Below, one piece after another: positions 18,490 through 23,110 of a DNA stretch of 64,000 nt (within the stretch, counting starts at the first letter, position 1; the number at the start of each line of letters is the position of its first letter). The notes under the pieces were generated by a model. It searched no databases. It saw only the letters and a list, made by a program, of their open reading frames with translations, and had not been told where the DNA came from. This DNA comes from an uncultured Chloroflexia bacterium (GTDB lineage: Bacteria > Chloroflexota > Limnocylindria > Limnocylindrales > CSP1-4): NCBI GenBank assembly GCA_963813535.1, contig CAWEZH010000003.1, positions 480,001-544,000 on the forward strand, in the 5' to 3' direction. A program made the position numbers and the translations under genes.

Positions 18490-19554
18490 CTAGTGCGCGG
18501 CGGTCGGGATGAGGGCGTCGTGCATCGCCCGCAGGTGGTCGGGCGTGCTGCCACAGCAGGCCCCGACGATCCGTGCACCGGCCGCGCGCATCTGGACGCC
18601 GAAATCCGCCATGGTCGACGGGTCGGCGCGGTAGACGGCCCGCATGTCGACGAGCTCCGGCATGCCGGCGTTCGACTTGGCGACGAGGACTACCTCCGGA
18701 TCCGCAGCGTGCATCCGCTCCATGACCGGCAGCAGCTCGTCCGGTCCGTTGCCGCAGTTGCCACCGACAGCATCGGCACCCCAGGCGACCAGCGCCTCGA
18801 CCGCCTGTTCGGGCGTGACGCCCATCATCGTGTGCCCACGGGTGTCGAAGGTCATCGTCGTGATGAGAGCGATGCCTGGCGAGGCGCGCCGGACTCCTTC
18901 GATGGCGGCTTTGATCTCGTTCAGGTCGGACATCGTCTCGATCCAGATCAGGTCGACGCCGCCGGCCACGAGCGACGCCGCCTGCTCGCGGAAGACGTCG
19001 ACGGCGATGTCGTAGTCCAGCGTGCCGAGTGGCTGCACGATCTCCCCGCTCGGGCCGATGTCGCCCGCGACCAGTGCGGTTCCGCCGGCGGCGTTGACCT
19101 CGGCACGGGCGAGGATCGCGGCCGTCCGGTTCAGCTCGTCGACACGCTCGCTCAGGCTATGGAGGCCGAGGCGCAATCGATTGCCGCCGAACGTATTGGT
19201 CATGATGATCCGCGACCCGGCGGCGAGGTAACCGCGCTGGATCCGGCGGATCACCTCCGGCTGCGTCAGGTTCCAGACCTCGGGCGGATCGCCGAACTGC
19301 AGCCCGTTGGCGAAGAGCATCGTGCCCATCGCGCCGTCGGCCATGATCGGACCCGGCTCCGCGAGCAGGTCGCGGAAGCGCTGGCTGGCCTTGCCGCCAT
19401 CGATCGCGAGGCGCATCGCCCGGTCGGGGAACCGCTCGTGGTCGACCGGTTCCAGCGTCGAGGCGGAGCCGGTGTCGGCCGTAACGGTGGTCCCGTCGCC
19501 GCGTGCGCCCGAGCGGGATCCGCGCGCCCGAAGGCCGCGGCGTGGGCTATCCAT
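18490..19554 (-). CDS. stand-alone homocysteine S-methyltransferase domain protein (split MetH/Bmt type)
   Basis: DGAMGT, TNTFG, IETMSD, GNCG, NAGMP, GACCG Zn ligands; start uncertain (19554 leaderless or 19416). Confidence 0.88.
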   Translation of the reverse strand: MDSPRRGLRARGSRSGARGDGTTVTADTGSASTLEPVDHERFPDRAMRLAIDGGKASQRFRDLLAEPGPIMADGAMGTMLFANGLQFGDPPEVWNLTQPEVIRRIQRGYLAAGSRIIMTNTFGGNRLRLGLHSLSERVDELNRTAAILARAEVNAAGGTALVAGDIGPSGEIVQPLGTLDYDIAVDVFREQAASLVAGGVDLIWIETMSDLNEIKAAIEGVRRASPGIALITTMTFDTRGHTMMGVTPEQAVEALVAWGADAVGGNCGNGPDELLPVMERMHAADPEVVLVAKSNAGMPELVDMRAVYRADPSTMADFGVQMRAAGARIVGACCGSTPDHLRAMHDALIPTAAH

Positions 19555-19610
19555 GGAGGGATGATAGCCCGCGCGACCAGCGGGTCGGCCGGATCGCTCT
19601 GCTGTGCCGG

Positions 19611-19789
19611 TTGACATCGATGCCCTGCCTCCGGCACCCTCCGCGCGATGCATCACGTCGTCGACAGCACCGCCACCCTGTCGCAGCAGCAGCCCGCGAG
19701 GGCCCGCTCGACCTGATGCCACGCGCCCGTGAGGGCGCCAGCCACGGATCTGAGAGGAACGCCCTCGGCACGAACGCCGAGGGCTTTTT
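19611..19789 (+). promoter_or_regulatory. promoter plus structured leader with intrinsic terminator (attenuator/riboswitch candidate) upstream of lysE
   Basis: TTGACA 19611-16 and CACCCT 19635-40; two GNRA hairpins; terminator GCCCTCGGC-ACGAAC-GCCGAGGGC-TTTTT at 19761-19789. Confidence 0.7.
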
Positions 19790-19813
19790 CATGTCCACCA
19801 TGGAGATCACACG

Positions 19814-20434
19814 ATGGAACCGGCACTGTTCGTCCGAGGCGTCGTCCTCGGCTTCACCATCGCGGCCGCGGTCGGCCCGATCAGCCTGCTCTGCATCCGG
19901 CGGACGTTGGCCGAGGGGCGGCTGGTCGGCATCGTGTCCGGCTTGGGCGTCGCCACGGCAGACGCGACCTATGGCGCCGTCGCGGCGTTCGGGCTGACGG
20001 CGGTCACGGACCTGTTGGTCGACTGGCGCCGCGCACTTGGGGTCGTCGGTGGCGCGTTCCTGCTGTGGCTCGCGTGGCGCACCTTCAAGTCGGTCCCGTC
20101 GGAGACGGCCACGGCAGGCAACGGCGAGGGCCGGCGAGGCCTGCCGGGCGCCTACCTGAGCACGCTCGGCCTGACACTGACCAACCCGATGACGATCCTG
20201 TCGTTCGCCGCCCTCTTCGTCGGTCTCGGGGTGACTGGGGGCGATGCAGCGGGCGCGACGCTGCTGACGCTGGGCGTCTTCACCGGCTCGGCGCTGTGGT
20301 GGGTCGTCCTCGTCACAGCGGTCGGAGCGTTCCGATCACGGCTGACGCCCACAGGTTTGCGCCGCGTGAACATCGTGTCGGGGCTCGTCATCGGGGCGTT
20401 CGGCATCGTGGCGATCGCCTCGGCGGTCCTGTGA
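19814..20434 (+). CDS. LysE/RhtB family exporter
   Basis: GFTIAAAVGPISLLCIRR, TLTNPMTI, GSALWW; 6 TM segments. Confidence 0.92.
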   Translation: MEPALFVRGVVLGFTIAAAVGPISLLCIRRTLAEGRLVGIVSGLGVATADATYGAVAAFGLTAVTDLLVDWRRALGVVGGAFLLWLAWRTFKSVPSETATAGNGEGRRGLPGAYLSTLGLTLTNPMTILSFAALFVGLGVTGGDAAGATLLTLGVFTGSALWWVVLVTAVGAFRSRLTPTGLRRVNIVSGLVIGAFGIVAIASAVL

Positions 20435-20507: not shown

Positions 20508-21356
20508 ATGACCAGACTCGAGCGGGCAAGTCTCACGGATCCAGTCAACCTGCGACCGCTGTCGCACGGGACCGGCGCGGTCGCCCAGGTCGGCGCACTG
20601 GCGATCGGACGTGCGAACCTCGAGGCGGGCTGGCGCTGGTCTGAGCACGTGAAGCCCGTGGTCGGCACGGAGTGGTGTGAGGCCCATCACGTCCACATCC
20701 TGATCAGTGGTCGATTCGCGGTGCGACTCGCCGGAGCGACCGAGGTGGAGGAGTTCGGGCCAGGGGACGTATTCGACATCCCGCCAGGACATGACGCCTG
20801 GGTCGTGGGTGACGACGCGGTGGAGATCCTCGACGTGTCGGGGAACGTCTCCCAGTTCGGATCGCCCCAGGCGGCATCTCGCCAGATCGCGACATTGCTG
20901 ATGACGGACATCGTCGACTCCACGCCGACCGCGGCTCGGCTCGGCGATGCCCGCTGGCGGCAGGCCCTGGCCGACCACGACCGTGTCGTCCGGTACCAGA
21001 TCGATCGCTACCGCGGCCGCGAGATCGACACCACGGGCGACGGCTTCTTCGTCGCGTTCGACAGCGCGGCCGCGGCCGTGCATTGCGCCCGGGGGATCCG
21101 GGAGGCCGTTCGCGGACTCGGCCTCGAGGTCCGGATCGGTATCCATACGGGTGAGATCGAGACGACAACGGACGGCGTCCGCGGCATCGCGATCCACGCA
21201 TTGGCGCGGATCATGTCGAGCTCCGCTCCCTCCGAGATCCTGGTGTCCGCCGTCACGAAGACGCTGACGGAAGGCGCCGACCTGACCTTCGAGGAGCGCG
21301 GTCCGCGATCGTTGAAGGGTCTGACGTCGCCGATGGAGCTGTTCGCGGTCGTATAG
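20508..21356 (+). CDS. cupin plus class III nucleotide cyclase fusion
   Basis: N-terminal cupin (GWRWSEH, EAHHVH, PPGHDAWV); cyclase TDIVDST, TGDGF, RIGIHTGE. Confidence 0.88.
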   Translation: MTRLERASLTDPVNLRPLSHGTGAVAQVGALAIGRANLEAGWRWSEHVKPVVGTEWCEAHHVHILISGRFAVRLAGATEVEEFGPGDVFDIPPGHDAWVVGDDAVEILDVSGNVSQFGSPQAASRQIATLLMTDIVDSTPTAARLGDARWRQALADHDRVVRYQIDRYRGREIDTTGDGFFVAFDSAAAAVHCARGIREAVRGLGLEVRIGIHTGEIETTTDGVRGIAIHALARIMSSSAPSEILVSAVTKTLTEGADLTFEERGPRSLKGLTSPMELFAVV

Positions 21357-23032: not shown

Positions 23033-23110
23033 TGGTCGGGGAGGTGGGATTCGAACCCACGATCTCGTGCTCCCAAAGCACGTGCGATAACCAGGCTTCG
23101 CTACTCCCCG
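23033..23110 (-). tRNA. tRNA-Pro(TGG)
   Basis: reverse complement CGGGGAG...CGTGC-TTTGGGA-GCACG...GTGGG-TTCGAAT-CCCAC-CTCCCCG-ACCA; encoded CCA. Confidence 0.97.

Follow-up and report, generated by a model that had tools for sequence, protein, structure and literature searches.

A conserved leader upstream of a LysE-family exporter gene in Limnocylindria, a candidate ribosome-mediated transcription attenuator

Limnocylindria are abundant Chloroflexota of soil and freshwater that lack well-studied cultured members, and to our knowledge the regulation of their genes is almost unexplored. In the 64-kb stretch of DNA analysed here (hereafter the window), bp 19611–19813 on the plus strand form a leader ahead of a LysE-type exporter gene, for which an earlier note had proposed "a metabolite-sensing RNA or leader-peptide switch". 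The question raised by this locus is which of these two kinds of control, if either, would act on the exporter, and what signal would be read.

The locus, its promoter and its distribution

The exporter gene (bp 19814–20434, plus strand, 206 aa) was assigned to the LysE family by Pfam (E 1.1e-21), and its ribosome-binding site, GGAG (bp 19802–19805), lay 3′ of the terminator described below and was unpaired in the predicted folds. None of the NCBIfam subfamilies of LysE/RhtB (LysE, ArgO, RhtB, RhtC and LeuE) scored above its cut-off, the best matches being TIGR00949 (56.8 bits, cut-off 184) and TIGR00948 (40.9 bits, cut-off 214), and the protein could be placed in the Pfam LysE superfamily only. 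Its orthologues were 62–92% identical. The divergent gene is a homocysteine S-methyltransferase, as had been stated previously (Pfam E 4.5e-67), nearest to betaine-homocysteine methyltransferase (336.3 bits vs. a cut-off of 338). However, the link to the Met cycle drawn from it proved weak: this gene was the divergent neighbour in only 29 of the 55 leader loci, all from close relatives, and a cyclase was a neighbour in 7 of the 55. A Met-cycle ligand was dropped, since the methyltransferase is not conserved with the leader.

The promoter elements were located as previously reported, with TTGACA (bp 19611–19616) followed by an 18-nt spacer, CACCCT (bp 19635–19640), 7 nt and an ATG at bp 19648, and together they make up a putative plus-strand promoter at bp 19611–19640. 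A scan of the leader for E. coli-type promoters gave no site, because the −10-like CACCCT is far from that consensus and agrees with TATAAT at A2 and T6 only; the promoter call rests therefore on the conservation of TTGACA-N17/18-CA(C/N)CCT and of its spacing to the start codon. Among the leaders, 34–40 nt separated the start of TTGACA from the start codon, in a fixed-distance arrangement with CA(C)CCT, the start codon was 6–9 nt past the conserved −10-like hexamer, and conservation ended upstream of TTGACA. No purine-rich Shine-Dalgarno sequence was found upstream of the start codon of the short open reading frame (sORF) in the leaders compared. Since the position of the promoter would put the transcript start at or beside the A of the sORF ATG, we infer that the mRNA is leaderless, its 5′ end coinciding with the start codon.

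Searching Rfam with the whole window at the gathering threshold revealed only a tRNA at bp 23036–23110, and a permissive search (E up to 10) of bp 19450–19900 returned nothing better than E 1.8 and 16 bits, far under the gathering scores of the families, which include the SAM, lysine, TPP, guanidine and T-box riboswitches and the amino-acid leaders; the earlier note had likewise been unable to place the leader by eye in any of these riboswitch classes. The leader is conserved: 54 distinct leaders were collected, all situated directly upstream of LysE orthologues and confined to one family of Limnocylindria (uncultured soil Chloroflexota). Of 36 other genomes from the genus, 17 contained leader DNA (L002–L018; L018 retains the terminator part only), model R1 matched the plus strand directly upstream of lysE at 44 of 80 LysE loci, and a family-wide search added five further leaders. 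No match to model R1 was obtained among 106 genomes from the four other families of the class. Two matches at the level of the phylum (L133 and L134) turned out to be terminators at gene ends, twelve of the weak matches inspected within the family (L112–L115, L117, L119, L120, L125–L128 and L131) were not upstream of lysE, and another (L123) was identical to L070; none of these contributed a new leader. Our literature search retrieved no work joining "LysE family" with riboswitch, and the available parts of the literature on LysE and leader-peptide attenuation, on glutamine-codon attenuation and on Limnocylindria leaders describe no such element. The element represents a new RNA family whose type of mechanism is already known, and the alignment of 54 leaders together with its covariance model could seed such a family.

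The leader-peptide ORF and the RNA structures

The 22-aa sORF noted before at bp 19648–19716 (plus strand) comprises 22 codons and a TGA, encodes MHHVVDSTATLSQQQPARARST and would be translated from the leaderless start. It was intact in 54 of 55 leaders, the exception being L014, in which a broken sORF goes together with a truncated lysE, suggesting joint decay. Across the leaders the sORF measured 17–24 codons. Start and conserved stop were a multiple of three nucleotides apart in 46 of 49 leaders, with five different lengths (60, 63, 66, 69 and 72 nt), and each of the three exceptions had an earlier in-frame TGA. Start codons were ATG (45), GTG (3) and TTG (1), and the stop codons at the conserved column were TGA (46) and TAG (2). 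In the variable codons, the GC contents at positions 1, 2 and 3 were 0.70, 0.65 and 0.85, compared with 0.67, 0.56 and 0.89 in lysE, and the diversities were 0.41, 0.42 and 0.24, respectively; residues were unconserved in these codons, as is expected for a leader peptide. These data argue for a short translated ORF that is conserved as an ORF, one of the features by which an attenuator is recognized.

The C-terminal half of the peptide was conserved (QQxPxRAxS[ST]) and the N-terminal half variable, although the last four residues again differed among leaders (RST, CST, TST, SSI, SPA, GRA). Outside helices, only the ATG, the first CAG and the TGA were made up of bases conserved at 90% or more. 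The window leader carries three Gln codons, CAG CAG CAG (bp 19684–19692, plus strand), which are candidates for the regulatory codons. In the predicted terminator-state fold the first CAG remains unpaired, and the CAG CAG block is partly paired within the extended hairpin H1. At least one Gln codon was located 6–12 codons ahead of the stop in all 54 peptides, invariably just 5′ of H1, and 117 of the 119 Gln codons (CAG 113, CAA 6) fell in this interval. Only 1–3 Gln codons per leader occur at the predicted stall site, fewer than in textbook attenuators. The spacer between the stop codon and the hairpin H2 was 6 nt in nearly all leaders with a varying sequence, and L047 and L055, which have an earlier stop and a deletion, still keep 6–8 nt. 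Cys made up 0.9% of leader-peptide residues and formed no runs.

Both hairpins were found where the earlier note had placed them, GCCC-GCGA-GGGC at bp 19692–19703 and GCGCCC-GTGA-GGGCGC at bp 19723–19738, and the window leader folded better than its shuffled versions (z −3.25; 1 of 200 shuffles equally good). The first belongs to an extended H1 within the sORF (bp 19688–19708, plus strand), in which AGC (bp 19688–19690) pairs with GCU (bp 19706–19708) and GCCC (bp 19692–19695) with GGGC (bp 19700–19703) around the loop GCGA. Among the leaders, 87% of H1 cells were paired and four of the eight pairs had two-sided changes, for example AGCGG/CCGCU in the main form vs. CGAGG/CCUCG, and AGCCGU/ACGGCU in L111. 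The second, H2 (bp 19723–19738, plus strand; GCGCCC-GUGA-GGGCGC), was also 87% paired with compensatory changes (GCGCUG/CAGCGC in L107); its loop is unconserved, and it is predicted to be present in both alternative states and to cap the antiterminator. In the MFE structure of the window leader, the region of the start codon pairs with that of the stop codon to form a predicted anti-antiterminator, P1 (bp 19650–19719, plus strand), through GCAUCA/UGAUGC (bp 19650–19655 and 19714–19719) and GUCG/CGAC (bp 19657–19660 and 19709–19712), enclosing H1 and a small hairpin (bp 19662–19667/19678–19683). Of 49 leaders, 18 had a P1 duplex better than shuffles (z < −2); with the single exception of L101 these 18 belonged to the main group, and P1 was absent from the intermediate group. 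The hairpin loops vary, and the only conserved nucleotides found in loops or junctions were those of the start, Gln and stop codons.

The terminator was likewise confirmed, as a 9-bp stem at bp 19761–19784 followed by TTTTT, and a terminator scan gave 1 site vs. 0.1 expected. The whole element (bp 19754–19790, plus strand) consists of the stem bp 19761–19769/19776–19784, the loop ACGAAC and U5, with a predicted energy of −22.1 kcal/mol, and the stem can be lengthened by base pairs between the GAGAGG purine tract and the U tract. In the aligned leaders, 95.5% of the terminator was paired and 7 of 11 pairs had changed on both sides (two of them with G-C/A-U ratios of 27:20 and 42:7); for the terminator state as a whole, 90.8% of cells were paired and 12 of 25 pairs had double changes, a level reached by none of 500 shuffles. 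The U tracts were short or interrupted in many leaders. An intrinsic terminator thus appears to lie between the sORF and lysE, as in an attenuator, and with 54 conserved leaders and compensatory changes in the terminator the earlier claim of a regulatory leader holds. In the window leader the terminator state is the predicted ground state (−67.2 kcal/mol), compared with −53.4 kcal/mol when the antiterminator is enforced; formation of the antiterminator would therefore need a ribosome or kinetic effects.

The predicted antiterminator (bp 19697–19767, plus strand) has about 19 bp with bulges, encloses H2 and has a domain energy of −38.2 kcal/mol. Its A strand (bp 19697–19719) contains the loop and 3′ arm of H1, CGAGGGCCC, followed by CUCGA, CUG and GC, and its B strand (bp 19741–19767) contains GC, CGG, UC, GAG, GG and GCCCUCG. 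The two strands were more complementary than dinucleotide shuffles (median z −2.1; z < −2 in 25 of 49 leaders), some alternative pairing being expected from composition alone since the GCCC/GGGC cores are common to all hairpins. In 7 of 10 leaders of the intermediate group the complementarity was no better than that of shuffles (z −0.6 to +0.5), and in the distant group 8–11 contiguous bp of antiterminator were formed from a different sequence. The last two bases of the H1 loop were GA or CA in all 39 leaders with the terminator 5′ arm CCCUC(G/A)G, and CC or GC in all 10 with an arm from which the U has been lost; both bases belong to a loop when the RNA is in the terminator state. In the columns of the MAFFT alignment, however, the antiterminator core never changed on both sides, the linker helix was only 63% paired, and the covariation score was higher with the partners slid by +1 (0.098) than in the predicted register (0.075). 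A C·A mismatch in the core was present in 20 of 49 leaders, and the change causing it was compensated in the terminator but not in the antiterminator.

The effect of a ribosome was modelled on 49 leaders with an assumed footprint of A site −15 to +12. An initial scan, which counted any partner of the terminator 5′ core, gave a mean pairing of 0.65–0.85 at every position; it was uninformative because GC-rich partners abound, and was replaced by partner-specific scans. Pairing of the terminator 5′ core with the loop and 3′ arm of H1 was predicted (P > 0.5) in 36 of 49 leaders with the A site at −11 and in 35 of 49 at −10, compared with 6 of 49 without a ribosome and none for A sites from −7 to 0, counts which overstate independence because the leaders are related. 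The modelled antiterminator thus appears when the A site is at the first Gln codon or the codon before it. A local hairpin between the GAGAGG linker and the terminator 5′ arm was discarded as a regulated element, as it was predicted in about half of the leaders whatever the ribosome position. The antiterminator of the earlier note, GAGGGCG (bp 19731–19737) from H2 with CGCCCTC (bp 19760–19766), is complementary and real in the window, where it equals the H1-based duplex (−15.6 vs. −15.3 kcal/mol), but it is unconserved: the H1-based pairing was the stronger in 34 of 49 leaders and the H2-based in 14, and with a ribosome at the stop codon the latter was predicted in only 5 of 49.

Proposed mechanism and competing explanations

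The comparison of leaders shows a conserved sORF, H1, H2 and terminator, and the complementarity of the two antiterminator strands. On this sequence evidence and the ribosome modelling, we regard it as somewhat probable that the LysE-family exporter is controlled through this leader by ribosome-mediated transcription attenuation, in the manner of the trp and his leaders. Transcription would begin at or beside the AUG of the 22-codon leaderless sORF. With no ribosome, P1, joining the 5′ end and the stop region, and the extended H1 would occupy the strand between H1 and H2, so that the terminator would form and transcription would end ahead of lysE. A ribosome that is not delayed would reach the last codons or the UGA, where its footprint would cover bp 19697–19722, and the terminator is proposed to form again for that reason. 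A leading ribosome stalled early in the sORF, optimally with its A site at the conserved Gln codons, about 10–11 codons before the stop, would cover the 5′ arm of H1 and block P1, leaving the H1 loop, its 3′ arm and the following strand free; together with the GAGAGG linker and the 5′ arm of the terminator, the freed strand could then build an antiterminator enclosing H2, and RNA polymerase would read into lysE. If so, textbook ribosome-coupled attenuation would operate on a leaderless message in Limnocylindria and would serve an exporter instead of a biosynthetic operon. Induction of an exporter by starvation would be an odd logic, and it counts against this reading.

As to the signal, our favoured guess is that tRNA-Gln is poorly charged. 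In the genome no GlnRS was matched above the cut-off and GatB was present (542 bits), suggesting that Gln-tRNA(Gln) is probably made via GatCAB. That the leader is the first glutamine-codon attenuator, in which stalling at the invariant CAG codons reports the supply of Gln-tRNA(Gln) and switches on a LysE-family pump, is a doubtful extension. It would represent a new type of nitrogen sensor, with stalling reporting amide nitrogen or the activity of GatCAB and glutamine synthetase, and the pump could be an efflux valve controlled by nitrogen status or a defence against glutamine-antimetabolite toxins from soil neighbours.

Of the two halves of the original proposal, the leader-peptide switch is supported by the preserved frame, the GC3 of 0.85 and the conserved codons, and the metabolite-sensing RNA is unsupported, with hairpin loops that vary. 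A riboswitch, in which H1, H2 and the joining strands would be the aptamer, a ligand would tip the RNA towards terminator or antiterminator and the sORF would be incidental, is unlikely in our judgement, although riboswitch control of exporters is common, the lack of a match to any known family would allow a new class, both hairpins and the sequences that join them are conserved, the structures exclude one another and the fold is favourable. Against it stand a frame that survives indels and a gene-like GC3. Bases that are conserved without being paired fall in the start, Gln and stop codons and not in junctions or loops; the loop of H2 is freely variable, that of H1 changes along with the terminator arm, sequence in the 5′ third of the RNA is variable, and P1 and the antiterminator pairing account for the joining strands. 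Control by an RNA-binding protein, of which TRAP-, PyrR- and BglG-dependent attenuators are examples, would treat translation of the sORF as irrelevant and let the protein decide between terminator and antiterminator on the two hairpins, whose stems are similar (GCCC/GGGC) and at a fixed spacing. We consider it very unlikely, since the leader loci have differing neighbours and no candidate regulator gene was conserved beside them, the hairpin loops are unconserved, and the sORF frame and codon signals would be left without explanation.

A different use of the same sORF would have the ribosome held at its end, by arrest of the nascent peptide (TnaC/SpeFL-like, possibly ligand-dependent) or by slow release at UGA, as the ON state, with the 5′ arm of H2 melted and its 3′ arm paired with the terminator 5′ arm. 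The conserved C-terminal half of the peptide, the UGA stop in 46 of 49 leaders, the maintained spacing to H2, also in L047 and L055, and the strength of the H2-based duplex in the window and in 14 leaders would all suit it, and being ON when an amino acid is plentiful would fit an exporter. Yet it is improbable, for the H2-based pairing was rarely predicted with the ribosome at the stop, the H2 loop that supplies 2–3 of its pairs is unconserved, in several of the leaders its energy drops to about −5 kcal/mol, H2 does not compensate for the G/A change of the terminator arm, and the last four residues vary; moreover, the conserved P and R codons form the H1 stem, so that peptide conservation may be secondary to the RNA. 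Most improbable appears the absence of any switch, lysE being kept at a low basal level by a partial terminator that acts constitutively or by stabilising hairpins at the 5′ end, with inconsequential translation of the sORF. In its favour, the terminator state is the more stable by about 14 kcal/mol and the column covariation of the antiterminator is indecisive, but conservation extends over about 150 nt, with three pairings that exclude one another and strands more complementary than shuffles, the H1 loop and the terminator arm vary together, and the broken sORF of L014 accompanies a truncated lysE. For motif hunters the attenuator reading carries a caution, namely that a conserved structured leader with a terminator and no Rfam match is not necessarily a riboswitch.

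Comparison with known systems

The proposed attenuator resembles trpL, hisL, leuL, thrL and pheL in its short leader ORF, the predicted alternative helices 1:2, 2:3 and 3:4, an intrinsic terminator ahead of the first gene, a stop codon at which a terminating ribosome would mask segment 2, and candidate regulatory codons where a stalled ribosome would unmask it. Unlike these, the LysE leader matches no Rfam family in sequence or structure, is apparently leaderless, would control an exporter rather than a biosynthetic operon, has only 1–3 candidate codons, all Gln, carries the extra hairpin H2 within the predicted antiterminator and occurs in Chloroflexota. In TnaC and SpeFL, a ligand-bound stall at or near the stop blocks Rho. 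The LysE leader resembles them in that its upstream ORF is short, is conserved in the C-terminal part, ends in UGA and would control downstream transcription, but it has an intrinsic terminator and variable last residues, and termination is predicted to be favoured when the ribosome has reached the stop.

In the available part of their description, the mycobacterial leaderless sORFs carry a polycysteine tract and control Cys metabolism, stalled ribosomes blocking structures that sequester the ribosome-binding site and thereby acting on translation (bioRxiv 10.1101/834739, Canestrari et al.). As far as this account extends, the LysE leader would share with them a leaderless sensory first cistron at which stalling remodels the downstream mRNA and turns on the following genes; in contrast, its terminator hairpin is followed by a U tract, the ribosome-binding site of lysE is situated past the terminator, Cys runs are lacking (Cys 0.9%) and the gene is an exporter, and it falls outside that group. 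Efflux genes under ribosome-mediated transcriptional attenuation are described, in the portions of the reports at hand, for bmrB-bmrCD of B. subtilis (PMC4191407) and for mef/mel (PMC4335068). The two respond to ribosome-targeting antibiotics, have Shine-Dalgarno-led leader ORFs and control ABC or MFS pumps, whereas the conserved codon here is Gln and the pump is of the LysE family, and homology to them was not detectable. They nevertheless have in common with the proposed attenuator a leader peptide and a terminator/antiterminator before an exporter, the pump being induced when translation of the leader is slowed.

Locus and distribution of the lysE leader

The features that the earlier note had read from this locus were all recovered in place on the + strand, namely TTGACA (19611-19616), an 18-nt spacer and CACCCT (19635-19640), 7 nt more to the ATG of a 22-codon small ORF (sORF; ATG at 19648, TGA at 19714-19716), two hairpins, H1 (19692-19703) and H2 (19723-19738), a GC-rich 9-bp stem followed by TTTTT (19761-19784), and the lysE ATG at 19814. 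A terminator scan returned this stem as its single site (0.1 expected in shuffles), and the leader fold beat dinucleotide shuffles with z -3.25; scanning the leader with an E. coli-type promoter consensus revealed no promoter. In an Rfam search, which the note had called for, the leader matched no known family, whether gathering thresholds were applied or the filters were relaxed and E values up to 10 admitted. The sole Rfam match in the 64-kb window was a tRNA gene (23036-23110, - strand).

The downstream product belongs to the LysE superfamily (Pfam E 1e-21) and fell below every NCBIfam subfamily cut-off; the gene after lysE (20508-21356, +) encodes a C-terminal adenylate/guanylate cyclase domain (Pfam E 5.6e-11). 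The divergent gene is, as had been noted, a homocysteine S-methyltransferase, nearest to betaine-homocysteine methyltransferase. Its longest ORF (18490-19722, -) spans the whole lysE leader, back to a GTG at 19722; the version starting at 19554 carries the Pfam domain only from residue 71, and alignments with relatives begin at the Met at 19416, which is probably the true start. The lysE promoter would then be preceded by about 195 nt of intergenic DNA (19417-19610) not accounted for.

Of the 36 other genomes in the genus, 17 contained relatives of the 271-nt leader query (L002-L018); none turned up in 24 genomes of a neighbouring family (about 1.1-Mb genomes), and a further match, L019, was a 24-nt chance match. 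Scanning the LysE orthologue alignment A2 against species-representative genomes yielded 80 loci, labelled uncultured Chloroflexia, Candidatus Limnocylindrales and Limnocylindria MAGs, plus remoter LysE homologues of other phyla. A covariance model built on 17 leaders (R1) matched the + strand directly upstream of lysE in 44 of these, the positive loci comprising every one whose LysE resembles the query most (about 57% identity and upwards), and it matched none of the LysE loci of Anaerolineae, Bacillota, archaea and other distant groups. A family-wide search gave five extra leaders (L107-L111). At class level, with E 1e-5 or better, matches were confined to the window's own family (6/44 genomes; 0/106 in four other families), and two phylum-level R1 matches were ordinary gene-end terminators. 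Conservation in relatives, on which the note had made its claim depend, is present upstream of lysE in one family of Limnocylindria. The window's genome has one copy. Since the 55 leader loci have the methyltransferase as divergent neighbour in 29 cases and the cyclase downstream in 7, the leader travels with lysE and not with its neighbours; it is a real conserved cis-regulatory leader. Dropping 10 first-set duplicates, together with L073 (doubtful) and L014 (broken sORF), left 49 distinct leaders, to which L107-L111 were added for a total of 54.

Several other arrangements were noticed in the relatives. In L018 (1441-1785, -), a LysE orthologue has the terminator hairpin and a GAGGAAC linker but no sORF, H1 or H2; TTGACA immediately precedes the linker, with another gene ending (...SGWDYYRVPDPER*) right beside it, as though the sensor part had been lost in a natural deletion. 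R1 also cross-matched a different conserved leader at about position 1500-1640 of loci L115, L117, L119, L120 and L125, with the layout ATTACCGGCTCCCGGCGGGAGAACGGAGGAAC..GGAGGGAC..GCGCC-loop-GGCGCC..GGGACCCTCGCCGG-loop-terminator, upstream of a gene starting ATGACGATGAC; it had no Rfam match at gathering in L117 and L120 and may be another unclassified leader of the same bacterial family. L120 also carries a c-di-GMP-I-GGC riboswitch aptamer (851-928, +; RF03167, 64 bits vs a gathering score of 59).

The small ORF

In all leaders but one, the start codon lies 34-40 nt from the start of TTGACA; it follows the -10-like hexamer by 6-9 nt, with no purine-rich stretch before it. Because of this promoter position, and because leader conservation stops 5' of TTGACA, the transcript should begin at about the start codon, from which we infer a leaderless sORF mRNA. 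In alignment A4, the start column holds ATG in 45, GTG in 3 and TTG in 1, and the stop column TGA in 46 and TAG in 2; these codons and the first CAG are the bases outside helices conserved to at least 90%. The start-to-stop distance is 60, 63, 66, 69 or 72 nt in 46/49 leaders, the exceptions (L016, L047 and L055) each having an earlier in-frame TGA. GC1,2,3 of the variable N-terminal codons is 0.70, 0.65 and 0.85, for comparison with 0.67, 0.56 and 0.89 in lysE. The N-terminal amino acids are not kept, codon positions 1 and 2 being more diverse (0.41 and 0.42) than position 3 (0.24), a pattern that looks like a translated ORF whose product does not matter. All 54 peptides have 1-3 Gln codons located 6-12 codons before the stop, a zone that holds 117 of 119 Gln codons; six of the Gln codons are CAA, a synonymous change. 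The sole frame-broken sORF, with 2 extra bases past the ATG, occurs in L014 (1035-1639, -), where lysE is truncated by a stop to 146 aa, so that leader and gene seem to be decaying together. Judged by this comparative evidence, the sORF is a real reading frame under selection.

Terminator and predicted antiterminator structures

RNAalifold recovered H1, H2 and the terminator. Over the 49 leaders, this terminator-state structure is 90.8% paired, dropping to 37-52% when partners are slid, and 12 of its 25 pairs have changes on both sides, a count reached by 0/500 shuffles. Covarying pairs number 7 in the terminator (such as G-C/A-U at 27:20) and 4 in the extended H1 (such as AGCGG/CCGCU vs CGAGG/CCUCG), which is formed by AGCGGCCC with GGG-C-CCGCU; the extended H1 of L111 is AGCCGU/ACGGCU and H2 of L107 is GCGCUG/CAGCGC. 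In the main sequence group, GCAUCA and GUCG at the message 5' end pair with CGAC and UGAUGC in the stop region, a duplex that beats shuffles at z < -2 in 18/49 leaders.

Within the leader, CGAGGGC (H1 loop plus 3' arm) is complementary to GCCCUCG (terminator 5' arm), and the next strand (CC, CUCGA, CUG, GC) to the pre-terminator linker (GC, CGG, UC, GAG, GG), predicting a bulged antiterminator helix of about 19 bp enclosing H2 (domain -38.2 kcal/mol in the window). We mimicked the ribosome by barring from pairing all bases between 15 nt upstream and 12 nt downstream of the A-site codon's first base; only RNA synthesised as far as the terminator loop was folded. Pairing of the terminator 5' core with the loop and 3' arm of H1 was counted where P > 0.5. 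It was predicted in 6/49 leaders with no ribosome. In 36/49 it was predicted with the A site 11 codons before the stop, one codon ahead of the Gln block, and in 35/49 with the A site on the next codon (10 before the stop), where the Gln block opens; with the A site 7 to 0 codons before the stop, it was predicted in none. In the window leader, P exceeded 0.6 with the A site anywhere from codon 2 to codon 12.

Alignment-free comparison of the two antiterminator strands with dinucleotide shuffles gave a median z of -2.1, with 25/49 leaders below -2 and 41/49 below -1. The distant group (L090, L062, L070, L101) forms 8-11 contiguous antiterminator pairs from different sequence, such as CCGAGGGUGAG with CUCGCCCUCGG. 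The last two H1 loop bases, which pair in the antiterminator only, are GA or CA in 39/39 leaders with terminator arm CCCUC(G/A)G and CC or GC in 10/10 whose arm lost the U, this joint change being probably a single evolutionary event. Column-wise covariation of the antiterminator on the MAFFT alignment was not decisive, z was near 0 in seven intermediate-group leaders, and for the G/A substitution in the terminator arm a compensating change exists in the terminator but none in the antiterminator. The antiterminator of the earlier note, the H2 3' arm with the terminator 5' arm, holds up in strength in the window (-15.6 vs -15.3 kcal/mol for the H1-based pairing) but is weaker in 34/49 leaders, and with a ribosome at the stop it is predicted in 5/49. 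On balance, we regard the particular H1-based helix as the probable antiterminator.

Proposed mechanism, signal and known systems

For the full-length leader of the window, the terminator state is favoured (-67.2 kcal/mol, vs -53.4 with the antiterminator enforced); therefore, readthrough needs a ribosome or kinetics. The segments would make up a classical attenuator set: 1) the sORF 5' part plus the H1 5' arm, 2) the strand from the H1 3' arm to the stop region, 3) the linker plus the terminator 5' arm, and 4) the terminator 3' arm. Absent or unhindered translation would lead to termination, and a ribosome delayed within codons 2-13 to readthrough. The stop codon lies 6 nt before H2 in nearly all leaders, a spacing that this model explains, as a ribosome at the stop would cover about 19699-19728 and with it segment 2. 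The earlier note had left the choice between a leader peptide and a riboswitch; the kept frame and gene-like GC3 speak for the former, and we consider a riboswitch quite improbable. Ribosome-mediated attenuation is the reading we favour, with reasonable though limited confidence.

As for what might delay the ribosome, only one sense codon, Gln, is both conserved across all lineages and free of pairing when the terminator forms; it sits at the 3' limit of the permissive stretch. No GlnRS match exceeded the cut-off in the window's genome (93% completeness); two weak GlnRS-model matches on contig 2 (19982-20287 and 1408325-1409134, both -) are presumably GluRS-like genes, and GatB (411485-412918, +) scored 542 bits. 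Since GatB is present and no GlnRS passed the cut-off, Gln-tRNA is probably made by transamidation, the indirect pathway. This route and the conserved, unpaired Gln codon lead us to propose, tentatively, Gln-tRNA charging as the signal, although induction by starvation would be unexpected for an exporter. As alternatives to Gln-tRNA charging, translation may be slowed in general, or the His codons at positions 2-3 may supply the signal.

The lysE leader is a new RNA family with a mechanism of known kind; no description of the element was found among titles and abstract openings in the literature. Its proposed working principle is that of the trp, his, leu, thr and phe leaders, none of which it matches in Rfam. 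A leaderless sensory sORF, putative here, is shared with the mycobacterial poly-Cys attenuators, which are reported to unmask a ribosome-binding site and use Cys tracts (10.1101/834739). Leader-peptide control of an efflux gene is likewise reported for bmrCD (PMC4191407) and mef/mel (PMC4335068), which respond to ribosome-targeting antibiotics.
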